Below, in pieces: positions 1-4,537 of a stretch of DNA of 64,000 nucleotides (position 1 is the first letter of the stretch; every line of letters starts with the position of its first letter). Made by a program: the position numbers and the translations under genes. Location of the stretch: positions 160,001 through 224,000 of the forward strand of contig CBDCQT010000013.1 of assembly GCA_965220745.1 (NCBI GenBank), written 5' to 3'. This DNA comes from Alphaproteobacteria bacterium (lineage in GTDB: Bacteria > Pseudomonadota > Alphaproteobacteria > UBA828). The notes under the pieces were generated by a model, which worked only from the letters and a program-made list of their open reading frames with translations, was not told the DNA's origin and searched no databases.

Positions 1-113
1 CCTGTCTCGCATCGGGCGTCGGCGATGCCGGCCACAAAGCGTCGTCGGGAGTTCCCCCGTCGTTGCCGCGTCCCCGCCGCTATGCGCGCTATGGGCGATC
101 GCTCTCCCTCGGA

Positions 114-1226
114 TCAGTTCGCCGCAGGCTCCATGCGCGCGATCGCCCACATGAAGCCGACCAGCTCACGGGCCACGGCGGTGACCGCGACCGTGCTGCG
201 CTTTCCTCGTGCGCACAGCGCGCGGTAGCGCCTGGTCAGGCGCGCCTGTGCTTTCCATGCCACCTCCTGGACGTCCTGCGGCAGATGTCTCGTCGCGAAG
301 TATTTCTTCCTTCCCACCGCCGCAGGATGGCGGTAGGCCCAGGCGCTCTCCGCCAACACGTGGCGCACCCGTGCGTTGCCGGCCCTGGTGATGCCGCCGC
401 GCCGAACGCTCTCGCCCGTCGAGCGCTCACAGGGCACGAGGCCGAGATAAGCCATCAGCCGCCGAGGATGCTCGAAGCGACGGATGTCGCCGACCTCCAC
501 CATGAAAGTGACCGCCGTAATCAGGCCGACCCCGCGCAGCGCCTGAAGGCGGTCCACCGCTTGAGCCAGCGGCCAGTCGAGCAGGGCGTCTTCGATCGCT
601 CCTTCCAGCCGCGCGACGCGCTCGCGCTCCTGTCTCTCGGCCGCGATCATCTCGTGCAGCACGACTTTCTGGGCGGGCCAGTCGAAGCTGAGCTCGTGGA
701 GCCAGGCCATGTGCCTGGGGCCCCACGCCTTCTTGCCAGCGTAGACCCTGCCATGACGCAGCAGGAAGGAGCGGATCTCCTGGCGCTTGCGGGTGCGGTC
801 TCTCACCGCCGCCTCGCGGGCGCGCACGAGATCGCGCATCGCTTCATGGGCCTCGTCCGGTGTCCAGATCTCGGTCAGCTCGCCGGCCCGGAACAGGCGT
901 ACCAGCTTCACGGCGTCGCGGCGGTTCGTCTTCACCCGCTCACCGGGCCGGCGCGGGATCAGGGACGGTGCGATGACGGCGCAGTCGTGTCCGAGCCCCT
1001 CGATCAGACGCTTCAGCCCGTAGCCCGTCGGGCCGGCCTCGTAGCAGAAGTGCAGCCGTGCGCCTGGCCGCTCGAGCTTGCGCACGAAACGACGGACGGC
1101 AGCCGCATCCGAGGCGATCTCGCCGAAATACCTGACCTCACCATCGCGTCCGCCTTCCGCCACCGCGACGGCGTGGCTGTCCTTCGACACGTCCAATCCG
1201 ATGAAAACCTCGCTATAGTCGACCAT
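114..1226 (-). CDS. IS110-family transposase/recombinase (DEDD RuvC-like domain plus C-terminal Tnp20 domain)
   Basis: Motifs IGLDVSKD, CYEAGPTG, RVKTNRRDA, LRGVG, AYLGLVP..STG and GITRAGN. ATG at 1226 is preceded by GGAGG. Confidence 0.93.
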   Translation of the reverse strand: MVDYSEVFIGLDVSKDSHAVAVAEGGRDGEVRYFGEIASDAAAVRRFVRKLERPGARLHFCYEAGPTGYGLKRLIEGLGHDCAVIAPSLIPRRPGERVKTNRRDAVKLVRLFRAGELTEIWTPDEAHEAMRDLVRAREAAVRDRTRKRQEIRSFLLRHGRVYAGKKAWGPRHMAWLHELSFDWPAQKVVLHEMIAAERQERERVARLEGAIEDALLDWPLAQAVDRLQALRGVGLITAVTFMVEVGDIRRFEHPRRLMAYLGLVPCERSTGESVRRGGITRAGNARVRHVLAESAWAYRHPAAVGRKKYFATRHLPQDVQEVAWKAQARLTRRYRALCARGKRSTVAVTAVARELVGFMWAIARMEPAAN

Positions 1227-1298
1227 GGTTCGCCCTCCTGGCTTGAGGCCCTGCTCACTGAGCAACCCTCGTTGAGATCAGCCAGTGTAGGGCGAACC
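1227..1298 (-). ncRNA. Structured 5' non-coding segment of the IS110 element (candidate guide or leader RNA)
   Basis: Perfect 10-bp inverted repeat GGTTCGCCCT (1227-1236) / AGGGCGAACC (1289-1298), with nested stems CTGGCT/AGCCAG, GAGG/CCTC and TGCTC/GAGCA. Confidence 0.45.
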
Positions 1299-1433
1299 GC
1301 CCCGCACCAGCCGGACCAGAAGGACATACGGTCTCGCTTGCCTACGCGCTTACGCGCGCGGCGCAGTCGCGCCGTCCGGGCCTGCGGCCCGGCATGGCGG
1401 AGGGGGGACAGGGGGAGGTGGGGCCCCGAAGGA

Positions 1434-2543
1434 TCAGCCGAGGCGTTCGTCGATCAGCCGGTTCACCTCTGTGGCGGCCTCCATCTGCACCATGTGGCCC
1501 TGGCCCTCCATCACCGTGCAGTCCACGCCGTCCGGCAGGCCGTCGGCGTGGGAGGCTGGGATGATCTGGTCGCCCGCGCCCCAGATGACGAGCGTGGGCA
1601 CACTGCCCGCCACGTCGCGCATCGCCTCGGCCTGGGCGCCGCCGGGCGCGAAGGCGTCCCGCACCGTGCTGAGCGCGGCGGTGACCCCGTCGATCCGCTT
1701 GAAGGCGAGCAGGTCGTTGATGAGCTGGCGGGTCACCAGCGCCGGGTCGCTGAACAGCTTCTCGACGTGGGGCTTGAGGTCCTTCCGGCGCTCGGCCGAG
1801 ATGAAGCCCTCCAGATAGTCCCCGTCGATGTCGCTGCCGAGGCCGGCGCTGCCGATCAGGGTGATCGATGCCACACGCTCCGGTGCCGCGCGGGCCACGG
1901 CAAGCGCGATGGCGCCGCCCATGGAGTGGCCGACGAGATGGGCCTGCTCGATTTCCAAGGCGTCGGCGAAGCCGGTGACGATATCGGCGAAGAAGCCGAT
2001 GGAGCCGTCGCCCACGTCCTTGCTGGAGCTGCCGTGCCCCGGCAGGTCGAGGGCATGGACAACCCGCTTGGCGGCGAGGGCCTCGTGGTTGAACAGCCAG
2101 TTGTTGAGGTCGCCGCCGAAGCCGTGGATCAGGATGACCGGCGTGCCGCCTTCGCCCCGCGTGAGGTAGCGGATCGTCCGCCCGGCGACTTCCACCGACT
2201 CGGTCGCCGGGCCGCCATCCTCATCGTCATCCTCGGGCGGCACGAAGTTCGCCTGAAAGTCGGTGACGAAGGCGTCGATATCGGCGTCGGCGACGCTCTC
2301 GTCGGCGACGATGCCGAGCAGGCCGCCGACCGGCAGCACGTCGCCCTCCTGGGCGACGCAGCGGCGGAGCGTGCCCGCGTCCGCCGCCTCGACCGCGCTG
2401 GAGATCTTCTCGGTCTCGATGTCGATGATCTCATCGCCCGGCGTGATCGAATCGCCCTCATCCACAAGCCATCCGGCCACCTTCCCCTCCTTCATGGAGA
2501 GGCCCCATTTGGGCATGCAAACGGTGCGGATGCCCTCGCTCAT
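1434..2543 (-). CDS. acoC: Acetoin dehydrogenase E2 subunit (lipoyl domain plus alpha/beta-hydrolase domain)
   Basis: MPKWGLSM start, lipoyl motif IETEKIS, HGFGG and GHSMGG hydrolase motifs. Overlaps the acoB stop codon. Confidence 0.88.
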   Translation of the reverse strand: MSEGIRTVCMPKWGLSMKEGKVAGWLVDEGDSITPGDEIIDIETEKISSAVEAADAGTLRRCVAQEGDVLPVGGLLGIVADESVADADIDAFVTDFQANFVPPEDDDEDGGPATESVEVAGRTIRYLTRGEGGTPVILIHGFGGDLNNWLFNHEALAAKRVVHALDLPGHGSSSKDVGDGSIGFFADIVTGFADALEIEQAHLVGHSMGGAIALAVARAAPERVASITLIGSAGLGSDIDGDYLEGFISAERRKDLKPHVEKLFSDPALVTRQLINDLLAFKRIDGVTAALSTVRDAFAPGGAQAEAMRDVAGSVPTLVIWGAGDQIIPASHADGLPDGVDCTVMEGQGHMVQMEAATEVNRLIDERLG

Positions 2544-3553
2544 TTGCTGGACTCCATCACCGCCTTCACGGCCTTCTGCACCGCCGCGGCGTCGGGGATG
2601 TAGAGATCCTCGAGCGTATCCGAGAACGGCACCGGCGTGTGCGGGGCGGTCACCTGCTTGATCGGCCCCTTGAGGGAATCGAAGGCCTTTTCGCAGACCA
2701 TCGCCGCGATGTCGGTGGCCATGTTGCAGCGCGGGTGCGCCTCGTCCAGCACCACCAGGCGGCCGGTGTTTTCCACGGTCTCGATCACGGTGTCCTCGTC
2801 GAGCGGCGAGGTCGTGCGCAGGTCGACGATCTCGCACTCGATGCCGTCGTTGGCGAGCGCGTTCGCCGCCTCAGCCGCGACATGAACCATGCGGCCCAGC
2901 GTCACGATCGAGACGTCGTCGCCCTCGCGCACGATGTTGGCCTCGCCGAAGGGGAGCGCATAGGGCTCCTCCGGCACGTCGCCTTCAAGGGTGTAGAGCC
3001 CCTTGTGCTCGCAGAAGATCACCGGGTCGTTGTCGCGGATCGCCTGGATCAGCAGCCCCTTGGCATCGTAGGGCGTCGCCGGGGTTACGACCTTGAGCCC
3101 GGGGATGTGGGTGAACACCGGATAGAGGCACTGCGAGTGCTGGGCGGCAGCGCGCAGCCCGGCGCCGTACATGGTGCGGATCACCACCGGCGTCTCGGCC
3201 TTGCCGCCGAACATGTAGCGGAACTTCGCCGCCTGGTTGAATATCTGGTCGAAGCAGACGCCCATGAAGTCGATGAACATCAACTCCGCCACCGGGCGGA
3301 GGCCCGCGGTCGCCGCGCCCACGGCGGCGCCGATGAACGCGGATTCGCTGATCGGGGTGTCCATCACCCGATCGCCGTACTTGCCGTAAAGCCCCTTGGT
3401 GATGCCGAGCGGGCCGCCCCAGGCGTCGCGCTCGCCGTCGGTGCCGAGCCCGCCGGCCACGTCCTCGCCCATGACGACGACGGTCTCGTCGCGCTCCATC
3501 TCCTGCGCGAGGGCTTCGTTGATCGCCTGCTGGTAGGTCGCTGTGCGTGCCAT
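2540..3553 (-). CDS. acoB: TPP-dependent acetoin dehydrogenase E1 beta subunit
   Basis: Motifs GEDVAGG, DTPISESAF and AAAQHSQ. Lies between the E1 alpha and E2 genes. Confidence 0.88.
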   Translation of the reverse strand: MARTATYQQAINEALAQEMERDETVVVMGEDVAGGLGTDGERDAWGGPLGITKGLYGKYGDRVMDTPISESAFIGAAVGAATAGLRPVAELMFIDFMGVCFDQIFNQAAKFRYMFGGKAETPVVIRTMYGAGLRAAAQHSQCLYPVFTHIPGLKVVTPATPYDAKGLLIQAIRDNDPVIFCEHKGLYTLEGDVPEEPYALPFGEANIVREGDDVSIVTLGRMVHVAAEAANALANDGIECEIVDLRTTSPLDEDTVIETVENTGRLVVLDEAHPRCNMATDIAAMVCEKAFDSLKGPIKQVTAPHTPVPFSDTLEDLYIPDAAAVQKAVKAVMESSK

Positions 3554-3568
3554 GACTCTCTCCCTCGC

Positions 3569-4537
3569 TCAGTAGGATACGTAGACGTCGGTCAGAAGAT
3601 CGGCGGCGGTCGGCGGCGGTGCCACCTTGGCCTTGGCGACCGCGCCATCGATCTGGGCTTCGGCCTCGCCATCGATCGCATCGAGATCGGCGGCATCGAG
3701 CAGCCCGGCCTCGGTCACCCTCTCGCGGAACATCGCCAGGCAGTCGCGCGACTCGCGCAGCTTCTTGACCTCGTCGGGTCCGCGGTAGGTCTGGGCGTCG
3801 CCCTCGAAGTGCCCGTAGTAGCGGTTGAGCTTGCATTCCAGCAGGCTCGGGCCGCCGCCCTCGCGGGCGCGCTTGATAGCCTCGCCGGCGGCCTCGTAGA
3901 CCGCAAAGAAGTCGTGCCCGTCGATCACGACGCCTGGCATGTTGAAGCCGCTGGCGCGGTCGGCGGCATCGTCGCAGGCGATCGACCACTTGGACGAGGT
4001 CGATTCAGCGTAGCCATTGTTCTCGATCACGAAGATGCAGGGCAGGTTCCAGACCGAGGCCAGGTTGAGGCTCTCGAACGTGGTGCCCTGGTTGGAGCCG
4101 CCGTCGCCCACGAATGCGATGGCGACGCCGCCGGTGTCGAGCTGCTTGGCCGCGAGCCCTGCGCCGCAGATCAAGGGCGGGCCGCCGCCCACGATGCCGT
4201 TCGCGCCCATCATGCCCTTGTCGAGGTCGGCGATGTGCATGGAGCCGCCCTTGCCGGCGCAGAGGCCGTCCTTACGGCCGTAAATCTCCGCCATCATGCC
4301 GTCCACGTCGCATCCCTTGGCGATGCAGTGGCCGTGGCCGCGGTGGGTGCTGGCGATGCGGTCGCGATCGTCGAGGTGCATGCACACGCCGACGCCGCTC
4401 GCCTCCTCGCCGGCATAGAGGTGCACGAAACCCGGAATCTCGCCGGTCGCGAACTCGATGTGAAGGCGTTCCTCGAACTCGCGAATTGTGCGCATGGTTG
4501 TGTAAGCCTTCAACAATTCGTCTCTGCTGAGCTGCAT
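3569..4537 (-). CDS. acoA: TPP-dependent acetoin dehydrogenase E1 alpha subunit
   Basis: GFVHLYAGEEA, STHRGHGH, the TPP motif GDGG..N and YYGHFEGD. Confidence 0.88.
   Translation of the reverse strand: MQLSRDELLKAYTTMRTIREFEERLHIEFATGEIPGFVHLYAGEEASGVGVCMHLDDRDRIASTHRGHGHCIAKGCDVDGMMAEIYGRKDGLCAGKGGSMHIADLDKGMMGANGIVGGGPPLICGAGLAAKQLDTGGVAIAFVGDGGSNQGTTFESLNLASVWNLPCIFVIENNGYAESTSSKWSIACDDAADRASGFNMPGVVIDGHDFFAVYEAAGEAIKRAREGGGPSLLECKLNRYYGHFEGDAQTYRGPDEVKKLRESRDCLAMFRERVTEAGLLDAADLDAIDGEAEAQIDGAVAKAKVAPPPTAADLLTDVYVSY

Follow-up and report, generated by a model that had tools for sequence, protein, structure and literature searches.

We asked which of the two non-coding ends of an insertion sequence encodes the RNA that would guide its recombinase. 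The element lies at the left edge of a 64,000-nucleotide stretch of alphaproteobacterial DNA (hereafter the window; negative positions lie to its left), and the window cuts it. A sequence-only reading of the window had noted an intact 370-aa IS110 recombinase with a hairpin upstream and at least 113 nt of non-coding DNA downstream, and had proposed that one or both flanks encode the guide and that structure at both ends could mean an RNA architecture unlike that of IS621. Fetching the sequence to the left, and aligning homologues and empty sites as that reading had advised, fixed the ends (-167 to 1332) and the AG core. The downstream non-coding DNA proved real and window-cut: the 3' end comes to ~283 nt (window 113 to -167), most of it left of the window. 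As judged from the comparisons below, the candidate guide RNA ('bridge' or 'seek' RNA) resides in this 3' non-coding end only.

The recombinase gene was as described. Its product matches the Pfam families DEDD_Tnp_IS110 (PF01548; E 1.5e-14, 54.5 bits, cut-off 29) and Transposase_20 (PF02371; E 2.7e-22, 79.4 bits, cut-off 21.3), and the NCBIfam model NF033542, 'IS110 family RNA-guided transposase', scores 254.7 bits against a cut-off of 140. The translation carries the C-terminal motif GLVPCERSTG, the motif residues of which are invariant in alignment A1. Across 365 aa the protein is 43% identical to a transposase annotated as 'ISSso6 family'; identity falls to 26% with the transposase of ISEc21, an IS110-type element, and to ~28% with an IS4321-family gene, over 64% of the query only. 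The IS621 and ISCro4 chains are distant matches, and with IS621 the similarity does not extend beyond the C-terminal domain (E 7e-7). By sequence comparison, the element falls in a clade whose named member is ISSso6, and ISAzs32, named in a legend of PMC11208160, might be a near relative.

The whole element measures 1500 bp plus a 2-bp AG core and lies on the minus strand (G000:C13:159833-161332). The source genome (G000) holds three copies, which align over positions 1329-2837 of the window locus (L001) at 99.93% and 94.97% identity; the window copy and the L002 copy differ at a single position in 1509. We set the ends from uninterrupted copies of both host repeats in which the copies sit, and the border that the sequence-only reading had placed at 1334 turned out to be exact, being the 5' end (to 1332) followed by the core (Table 1). 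Public sequencing runs supplied an empty allele of the window site: an X6 contig connects L001 1330 directly to 2833, omitting 1502 nt, that is, 1500 plus 2. As three letters at this joint fit either side, the core in the window copy could extend to GAG. A contig from run X2 connects L001 1317 to 2833 with 11 intervening letters. No paralogous uninterrupted copy of the window site was found in G000, even at 3 mismatches in 24 nt. With AG on both sides of the element, a single AG in the empty site and AG/AG in every anchored relative, the insertion is of the IS110 type. As is usual for that family, insertion is site-specific, with a short core on both sides and no terminal inverted repeats at the extreme ends. 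Its near-identical L002 copy and a site that is empty in another run point to recent activity of the element; no circle-junction joint was present among the joints listed from the sequencing runs. Overall this is an ordinary IS110-family insertion sequence, IS1111-type in its layout, which is well preserved and occupies a small genomic repeat.

Table 1. Positions of the element and its features (window numbering unless another sequence is named).
Feature	Position	Strand	Basis or remark
In-window portion of insertion sequence	1..1332	-	Copy alignment, uninterrupted repeats, empty-allele contig
Predicted bridge/seek RNA, in-window 5' part	1..101	-	R1 covariance-model match
Predicted left-target guide, GCG-AG then A	5..10	-	Same sense as left flank + core + first left-end base
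Predicted cap hairpin of target-binding loop, between the guides	15..34	-	Helix 4
Predicted right-target guide, CGACG-CU	38..44	-	Complementary to top strand of core + right flank (AG-CGTCG)
Predicted ~21-bp closing stem, 5' strand	65..89	-	Partner at window -71..-95
Transposase/recombinase gene, 370 aa + stop	114..1226	-	Intact ORF, DEDD N-terminal + PF02371 C-terminal domains
Putative structured 5' UTR of transposase gene	1227..1318	-	Conserved fold, two inner helices
Left subterminal inverted repeat ATGTCCTTC, 9 bp	1319..1327	-	5 nt inside left end
Left AG core copy (CT on + strand)	1333..1334	-	AG at both junctions in 49/49 anchored relatives
REP-like dispersed repeat hosting the element	1335..1400	.	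Further genomic matches
Right subterminal inverted repeat GAAGGACAT	Outside window		3 nt inside right end
Right AG core copy	G000:C13:159831-159832		Outside window

Of 49 genomes searched at the level of the order, only 5, G000 counted, hold close relatives, and the comparative set was therefore drawn from genome contigs, as the best 80 of 559 confirmed stretches. Screening covered 87 loci, of which 86 have a stop codon; in 56 of these both ends were found and the 3' region exceeds 200 nt. Both RNA anchors are present in 49 of these elements and long enough flanks in 44, leaving 42 after removal of identical combinations of guide and flank.

In the layout published for IS1111-type elements, as described in PMC11187229 and PMC11208160, the left end is short, the right end is long and holds the RNA, and the inverted repeats are subterminal. 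Here 106 nt lie upstream of the gene against ~283 nt downstream, the corresponding lengths in relatives being 99-114 and 266-395 nt, and the short left and long right ends recur in all collapsed-repeat contigs.

From the alignment of the long ends we derived a predicted RNA of ~185-230 nt with a long closing stem and two arms. Its covariance model, R1, matches the window element at G000:C13:159875-160101 (window -125 to 101; 187.8 bits, E 6e-58), which puts the donor-binding arm, together with the closing stem's 3' strand, beyond the left edge of the window. Exactly three R1 matches occur in the genome, one for each copy of the element. The pairing is well conserved and supported by compensatory change: across 47 pairs, 96.7% of cells are paired, against 38-48% with slid partners, and 28 of the 47 pairs show changes on both sides, against 7-10. 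None of five measures of the structure was reached by any of 500 shuffles, and in single-sequence folding the whole RNA has a z of -4.1, with 0 of 200 shuffles folding as well. The closing stem (helix 1) carries both-side changes in 20 of its 21 pairs, with 96.4% of cells paired; helix 4 has nine pairs, four of them with both-side changes (97.4% paired). Helix 2 (GGG/CCC) never covaries and has a local hairpin as an alternative, and several helices are invariant. Of 84 related loci, 76 have a sense-strand R1 match of 127.8-231.9 bits after the transposase gene, including 35 that had no part in building the model; on the antisense strand no match exceeds 32 bits. Among the eight loci without a match (L017, L018, L020, L038, L053, L064, L081 and L101), L038 and L081 are truncated by contig ends, and there are degenerate copies. 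Rfam gave nothing beyond chance-level hits, either for window 1-3000 (E up to 10) or for the three copies (E up to 1), and scanning of the linear element returned no sigma-70-like promoter and no intrinsic terminator. The sole sequence from an RNA library that overlaps the region is a 358-nt metatranscriptome contig from run X1, which spans L001 1329-1623 and comes from a relative with 4 differences; being an assembled contig, it shows neither transcription, ends nor strand.

If this RNA is a guide, its loops should follow the sequences into which relatives have inserted. Arm 1 would form the target-binding internal loop, with the guides in its unpaired strands: the right-flank guide on the 5' side (window 44-38) and the left-flank guide on the 3' side (window 10-5). 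In the 42 non-identical elements, the right guide pairs with flank positions +1 to +5 in 41, 39, 27, 22 and 18 cases, against permuted means of 24, 25, 11, 12 and 10. The left guide is identical to flank positions -1, -2 and -3 in 38, 40 and 34 of the 42 (permuted means 16, 19 and 19). The guide-flank sums came to 143 and 180, with permuted means of 76 and 110, respectively, and none of 2000 permutations reached either. In the window copy all 10 positions match, the right guide pairing over 5 + 2 nt. The left guides GUA, UUU, GAC, GGC, CUC, CGA and AUU of relatives adjoin GTA, TTT, GAC, GGC, CTC, CGA and ATT, respectively, and the rare changes in the right guide are tracked as well, for example ...CACU beside AG-TG.... 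Two unpaired segments for opposite target strands that overlap at the core and covary with the target are what is expected of a bridge RNA or seekRNA. A further 10-nt complementarity, between RNA at about window 19-10 and the left flank of L002 and L003, was dropped because 5-6 of its bases belong to the family-invariant GCCCG.

A structure 3' of a gene could instead serve in mRNA stability, as a terminator or as a protein-binding end, with the flank matches arising as by-products of a common target preference. Expression and binding of the RNA are predictions from sequence here, several helices are invariant, and guide-flank agreement is partly inherited, as many relatives have one target type (GTA-AG-CGG/CTGTT...). 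Yet the agreement spans at least 12 different left-guide triplets, each with its own flank, as well as the rare right-guide changes; the guides lie unpaired in an internal loop and follow each other as published IS1111 seekRNAs have them; and the protein family has been shown experimentally to need such an RNA, according to PMC11187229, which also describes that order. We consider such another role improbable, and a guide RNA in the 3' end the better account of the flank matches.

The insertion sites bear on whether the ends were placed correctly. The element lies just downstream of an acetoin-dehydrogenase-like operon, in the same orientation, within a REP-like repeat: window 1333-1400 has at least 36 further genome matches (40 of 166 candidates scored), and uninterrupted copies read ...GGCAAGCGAGCGG.... 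The left target matched by the guide is the GCG of the minus strand at window 1335-1337, and the occupied site, GCG-AG-CGTCG, is exactly what the guides spell. The other two genomic copies match the guide only at GC(G/A)-AG-CG. The copies use two unrelated families of host repeat, which have in common only the short guide-matched site.

Were the ends mis-set, bases taken for flank would really belong to the element and the agreement would be an artefact. PMC11187229 warns of exactly this problem, and BLAST similarity between the copies does extend 3-5 nt past the proposed ends, to L001 1329 and 2837. But uninterrupted copies of the two different host repeats hold GC(G/A)-AG-(C/T)G as one unbroken stretch, the empty-allele contig joins the flanks of the window site and is accounted for by no paralogue in G000, and beyond the common bases the flanks differ among copies yet pair with the guide in the window copy. 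An error of this kind is extremely improbable, and we take the guides to read true flanks.

The second arm appears to address the element itself. Arm 2 repeats the element's own right end and core (...AUCAG-AG), and the C/A position in ...AU[C/A]AG-AG matches the right end in every one of 26 distinct combinations, of which 21 are C/C and 5 A/A. Its invariant AUGCGGU is complementary, with one G:T, to the left end's first 7 nt; as both AUGCGGU and its possible partner CCGC are invariant, pairing with DNA and a plain hairpin (helix 6) look the same in these data. The right-donor guide has no covariation support, and left-end variants of relatives, compared by eye, are not tracked by the RNA. The expectation that the loops would covary with target and donor thus held for both target guides and for the left-donor guide, while the right-donor segment does not vary. 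Perfect subterminal repeats of at least 6 bp are present in 54 of 56 related elements, and with 24 distinct sequences among those 54 their arms covary. Abutting the ends would place TTGAnn and TATGnn in promoter arrangement in 45 of the 56 elements, with a 17-nt spacing in 44 of these.

The 5' end also holds a real structure. The upstream hairpin that had been drawn at 1227-1298 is kept among relatives: its 10-nt arm at 1298-1289 pairs with 1236-1227 immediately before the ATG, overlapping the end of a GGAGG box. Derived from the window element itself and then scored on relatives, the fold comprises 19 pairs and has 88.4% of cells paired, where slid partners give 33-55%; both-side changes occur in 56 cells, against 7-19, and in 5 of the 6 pairs of its helix 1. 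Since the fold ties up the 10 nt that immediately precede the start codon, we read it as a translational 5'-UTR structure. In similarity to its own target the 5' end shows no excess (mean longest shared word 5.42, permuted mean 5.72), whereas the 3' end in the same test scores 7.34 against 6.73, above 200 of 200 permutations. We therefore rejected the 5' end as a guide; it is probably a fold that limits translation. Of the proposal that one or both flanks encode the guide, the 3' half stands on the guide-flank covariation and the 5' half falls; conserved, covarying structure is present in both flanks, and that of the 5' flank comes with no target match.

This result bears directly on the idea that both non-coding ends encode guides, or that the 5' end is a second, new kind of guide with an architecture unlike IS621 and IS1111. 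The 5' end does carry a conserved, covarying fold, and 26 of more than 350 ISfinder entries have two longer non-coding regions, by the count given in PMC11187229. Against this, the 5' end is only 106 nt long with its conserved pairing over the start-codon approach, the word-sharing comparison of its variable part with its own target gave the null result above, and the 3' RNA already holds the donor copy as well as the two target guides. A two-ended guide is highly improbable, and the novel architecture that structure at both ends could have meant is not supported: the layout is the IS1111 type already published (PMC11187229, PMC11208160).

Several further likenesses tie the element to the IS1111-type seekRNA elements ISEc11, ISPa11, ISKpn4 and ISPst6, as Siddiquee et al., 2024 (PMC11187229) describe them. 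Besides the long non-coding region downstream of the transposase gene, these are subterminal repeats set back from the ends (here by 7 nt, core included, on the left and 3 nt on the right), the motif GL-P----(S/T)G, a promoter created at the circle junction (here inferred), and an RNA segment complementary to the top strand that lies 5' of the one for the bottom strand and overlaps it at the insertion point. The same guide order, top-strand before bottom-strand, is given for the type in PMC11208160 also; subterminal inverted repeats of 7-17 bp mark the group, and PMC11187229 gives a C-terminal GL-P----S(t)G for it. There are differences: the transposase has 370 aa here rather than 330-350, its identity to an IS4321-family gene is only ~28%, and the RNA, with its 21-bp stem, has ~185-230 nt rather than the 82-96 nt of purified seekRNAs, being closer, when compared by description, to the 154-nt 'long seekRNA' of the same paper.

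IS621 (Durrant et al., 2024, PMC11208160; 8WT6 and others), going by its published description, shares a DEDD recombinase with PF02371, a single RNA with target- and donor-binding loops (here predicted from sequence), loops that each read both strands with the 2-nt core within the guides, and insertion into REP-type repeats. Unlike in IS621, the RNA would lie here in the right end rather than the left, with the guide order in the loop reversed; the core is AG rather than CT and the target read shorter (~3-5 + 2 + 5 nt); a long stem closes two arms into a three-way junction; and long subterminal repeats are present.

The closest named element, ISSso6, is represented by a Shigella boydii plasmid (NZ_CP026763.1, 'IS110-like element ISSso6 family transposase'). 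Beyond the related transposase, it has the same RNA directly 3' of the gene, where R1 scores 87.7 bits (E 1e-28) and where both the invariant AAUGCGGUAUCCAACCCGCG block and a left guide, GUAAGA, are present; its host is one of the Enterobacteriaceae and its G+C content is lower. No description of its RNA appeared among the papers listed for ISSso6. ISPpu9 and ISPpu10, as characterised in PMC12288879, are IS110-family elements that target REPs and likewise insert into repetitive extragenic palindromes, and ISPpu9 has a small-RNA gene downstream of its transposase gene; the likeness is by description, and here two unrelated repeat families are used.

We are confident in reading the element as an IS1111-type IS110 element of the ISSso6 clade with its guide RNA in the 3' end and a 5'-UTR fold that is not a guide. 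By analogy with ISEc11, ISPa11 and IS621, it would excise as a circle with the abutted ends ...GGACATCAG-AG-ACCGTATGTCC.... The junction would create a promoter, TTGACG - 17 nt - TATGTC, from which the RNA would be transcribed jointly with the transposase gene. In complex with this RNA, the DEDD recombinase would then let arm 2 pair at the circle junction and arm 1 at a target, and strand exchange would follow at the AG core.

A bolder proposal, which we think unlikely, is that the ISSso6/alphaproteobacterial clade has a bridge-RNA design uncharacterised at the bench: a three-way junction locked by the ~21-bp stem, an unusually short target code (~3 + 2 + 5 nt), and a right-donor guide inside an invariant hairpin. 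For pairing with the left end that hairpin would have to open, so that the RNA would change its conformation when the donor binds; translation could in turn be coupled to this state through the 5'-UTR fold, as a second layer.

The analysis leaves the general picture of how IS110-family elements work unchanged. It offers a worked guide code for a large clade of the family, supported by covariation, with an AG core, a left guide of ~3-5 nt and a right guide of ~5-7 nt. With this code, target prediction and annotation of the clade's elements become possible. Rhizobial and other alphaproteobacterial replicons commonly carry the clade (at the DNA level, 482 plasmid records match), and it extends to enterobacterial plasmids through ISSso6. 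For programmable recombination in high-G+C hosts it offers a compact candidate. Occupancy, however, is not predicted by the 10-bp code on its own: the exact 10-mer target has 87 unoccupied sites in the genome, against 57 for a reversed control, a mild enrichment, and three sites are occupied.

Two hairpins that the sequence-only reading had placed in the downstream flank, at 9-28 (GCATCG/CGATGC) and 46-59, can be drawn, and the second appears in the single-sequence fold; they are not pairings conserved in the family. As functional structure we replaced them with the covariation-supported fold, in which 15-34 forms the cap and 5-10 and 38-44 are the unpaired guides. Inspected by eye, the 9-14/23-28 pairing is retained in the nearest relatives only (L024 and L026), and it may be a lineage-specific alternative.

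[quoted passage not shown] L002 differs from the window copy at 1 of 1509 aligned bases; L003 (G000:C10:219808-221137) has about 95% identity, and its disrupted transposase gene matches in two pieces that overlap and contain TGA stops. Similarity between copies ends at positions 1329 and 2837 of L001 (C13:158501-162900, the stretch around the window copy; window position plus 1500), and the outermost of these bases are target, not element. A contig from the public sequencing run X6 joins L001 1330 directly to 2833, skipping 1502 nt, with three letters that fit either side, and one from run X2, in which 11 letters stand between 1317 and 2833, gives the same junction. Because the assembled genome contains no paralogous uninterrupted copy of the window site, even with 3 mismatches allowed in 24 nt, these contigs represent the empty allele of that site. 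The element, cut by the left edge of the window (C13:160001-224000), is 1500 bp long (window -167 to 1332, negative positions lying left of the window), with a left end of 106 nt and a right non-coding end of about 283 nt; in transposase orientation, the occupied site reads GGCAAGCG-AG-CGTCGCGCGG.

Features of the element and its host sites
Feature	Position	Strand	Basis or relation
Inverted repeat, 9 bp, ATGTCCTTC / GAAGGACAT	5 nt inside left end, 3 nt inside right end		
Transposase ORF, 370 aa, intact	window 114-1226	minus	translation
R1 (covariance model of the 3'-end RNA) match, window copy	C13:159875-160101	minus	187.8 bits
Left guide, 3' strand, ..NNN-AG-A	window 10-5		same sense as left flank + core + first left-end base
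Right guide, 5' strand, NNNNN-CU	window 44-38		complementary to core + right flank
Core AG, both sides of element	left copy at window 1333-1334 (CT on + strand)	minus	junction comparison
Second repeat, flanks of L002	L002 1381-1500 and 3010-3129 (G000:C13:12343-14091)		halves: 24 and 19 genome matches
Second repeat, example of uninterrupted copy	G000:C11:646907-647103		

The layout is common to all complete relatives among the best 80 of 559 loci (55-84% protein identity) and four loci from the window's own taxonomic order. Rhizobiales, Rhodobacterales, Sphingomonadales and metagenome bins account for most of the 80, and in several cases a short contig (1503-1544 bp) consists of the collapsed repeat alone. 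A perfect subterminal repeat of at least 6 bp is present in 54 of 56 elements, and its arms covary, since 24 different sequences occur. With the ends abutted, TTGAnn would be followed by TATGnn in 45 of the 56 elements, the spacer being 17 nt in 44; the window element would form the candidate junction promoter TTGACG - 17 nt - TATGTC. From sequence, this arrangement is consistent with what PMC11187229 describes for IS1111 and IS110 elements, a promoter formed at the junction.

Conservation of the 3' non-coding region far exceeds that expected of neutral DNA at 55-60% protein identity. RNAalifold on 43 sequences predicted a closing stem some 21 bp long, a first arm (arm 1) in which a hairpin caps an internal loop, and a second (arm 2) closed by GGACG/CGUCC. 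Pairing holds in 96.7% of the cells of this structure (38-48% with slid partners), and two-sided changes are seen in 28 of its 47 pairs (controls 7-10); none of 500 shuffles reached any of the five pairing measures. The closing stem covaries at 20 of its 21 pairs, while helices 2 and 6, having no variation, are supported neither way. The single-sequence fold has a z of -4.1. Within the genome, R1 hits each of the three element copies once and nothing else; the L003 hit scores 176.6 bits despite the broken gene and carries a changed right guide. Sense-strand matches occur in 76 of the 84 related loci (127.8-231.9 bits; 35 outside the model-building set), and antisense scores there do not exceed 32 bits, which fixes the strand of the predicted RNA. 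The Shigella boydii plasmid NZ_CP026763.1 gives a further match of 87.7 bits (L120 1829-2066), directly after an annotated ISSso6-family transposase gene, so the RNA family spans alpha- and gammaproteobacteria. The bench-tested IS110-type element ISEc21 gave no R1 match, Rfam 15 holds no family for this RNA, and a promoter scan of the linear element found none. In X1, a coral metatranscriptome, a 358-nt contig of depth 38 spans exactly the 3' non-coding end (L001 1329-1623), which is not proof of transcription; it derives from a close relative (4 differences) and continues into unlike sequence on both sides.

Arm 1 contains two unpaired strands that vary between elements within conserved surroundings, and these correspond to the target. 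Across 42 non-identical elements, the left guide equals the left flank at -1, -2 and -3 in 38, 40 and 34 cases (permuted means 16, 19 and 19), and the right guide pairs with the right flank at +1 to +5 in 41, 39, 27, 22 and 18 (permuted means 24, 25, 11, 12 and 10). None of 2000 permutations attained either summed score, in a test that relatedness among elements inflates. Even so, the left-guide triplets are of no fewer than 12 kinds, each found beside its own flank triplet. The majority of relatives occupy GTA-AG-CG(G/C)TGTT; in the window element both guides are changed (GCG, CGACG) and the site is GCG-AG-CGTCG, a match at 10 of 10 positions. The sites of L002 and L003 match the guides at GC(G/A)-AG-CG only, and this short motif, as GC(G/A)-AG-(C/T)G, is the sole common part of two unrelated host repeats: the REP-like repeat of the window copy, whose uninterrupted copies read ...GGCAAGCGAGCGG..., and a second, roughly 200-bp repeat hosting L002 and L003, whose uninterrupted copies read ...CATCGGGC(A/G)AG(C/T)GG.... 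The exact 10-bp site occurs unoccupied 87 times in the genome (57 for a reversed control) beside three element copies, reflecting either low activity or the reading of more than 10 bp. Some sites have tandem AG-AG cores, as at the right junction of the related locus L085 (...CAGAG-AG-AGTTCG) and in the uninterrupted repeat L110 (GCAAGAGCGG); there the right-guide register would shift by 2 nt.

The 3' strand of arm 2 is a copy of the right end and core (...AUCAG-AG). A single position of this strand varies (C or A), and in all 26 distinct combinations it is the same as in the right end (21 C/C, 5 A/A); the base after the core equals the first right-flank base in 17 of the 26, as would be expected if the copy extended briefly into the recombinant junction. 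On the 5' side, an invariant AUGCGGU could base-pair with ACCGTAT, the seven nucleotides that open the left end, with one G:T; in the window element this pairing reaches 13 nt including the core. A role as right-donor guide is no more than plausible, because the same segment can form an invariant GCGG/CCGC hairpin and left-end variants of relatives lack a matching change in arm 2.

The 370-aa product contains both IS110-family transposase Pfam domains and scores 254.7 bits against NF033542 (NCBIfam, 'IS110 family RNA-guided transposase'; cut-off 140). It is 43% identical to the annotated ISSso6-family protein of the S. boydii plasmid, about 28% to an IS4321-family gene and 26% to the ISEc21 protein; IS621 and ISCro4 chains match it only distantly. 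Subterminal repeats, a long downstream non-coding region, the GL-P----TG motif and guide order, the full set of defining structural traits, make the element IS1111-type by structure rather than by phylogenetic placement. Its transposase exceeds the length given for that group. The guide order is that of IS1111 seekRNAs, in which the top-strand-complementary guide lies 5' of the other (PMC11187229), and the reverse of that in IS621. By homology with published systems, the excised element would form a circle, the promoter at its abutted ends would become active, and the RNA would pair with donor and target before strand exchange at the core. The result is a covariation-backed guide code for a large, little-studied clade, matched at the DNA level by 482 plasmid records and at the protein level by at least 8000 proteins at E <=1e-30.

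The sequence-only reading had noted structure on the 5' side also and considered that flank a possible guide. The upstream hairpin does exist and is conserved: the 10 nt immediately preceding the ATG (window 1236-1227), which overlap the end of the GGAGG box, pair with 1298-1289, and two further helices lie within this pairing. Changes on both sides occur in 5 of 6 pairs of this long-range helix, in a structure set from the window element itself, which favours it over slid controls. A guide role did not hold up, the 5' end having no excess similarity to its own target; we infer instead a 5'-UTR fold that limits translation. Such a fold could matter at this location: immediately upstream of the element, and in the same orientation, is an operon (window 1434-4537, minus strand, ending 33 nt before the REP-like repeat) from which read-through into the element is possible. 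The operon looks like acetoin dehydrogenase, encoding E1-alpha (PF00676), E1-beta (transketolase domains) and a lipoyl-domain/alpha-beta-hydrolase protein.

The REP-like repeat (window 1335-1432, L001 1150-1328) has at least 36 further genome matches. Inverted G-rich blocks (GGAGGGGACAG.GGGAGGTGGG-like) border it on both sides, so a larger palindromic unit or MITE may include it. Relative to the uninterrupted copies seen, the window copy of the repeat is longer by about 31 nt, which form an additional GC hairpin.
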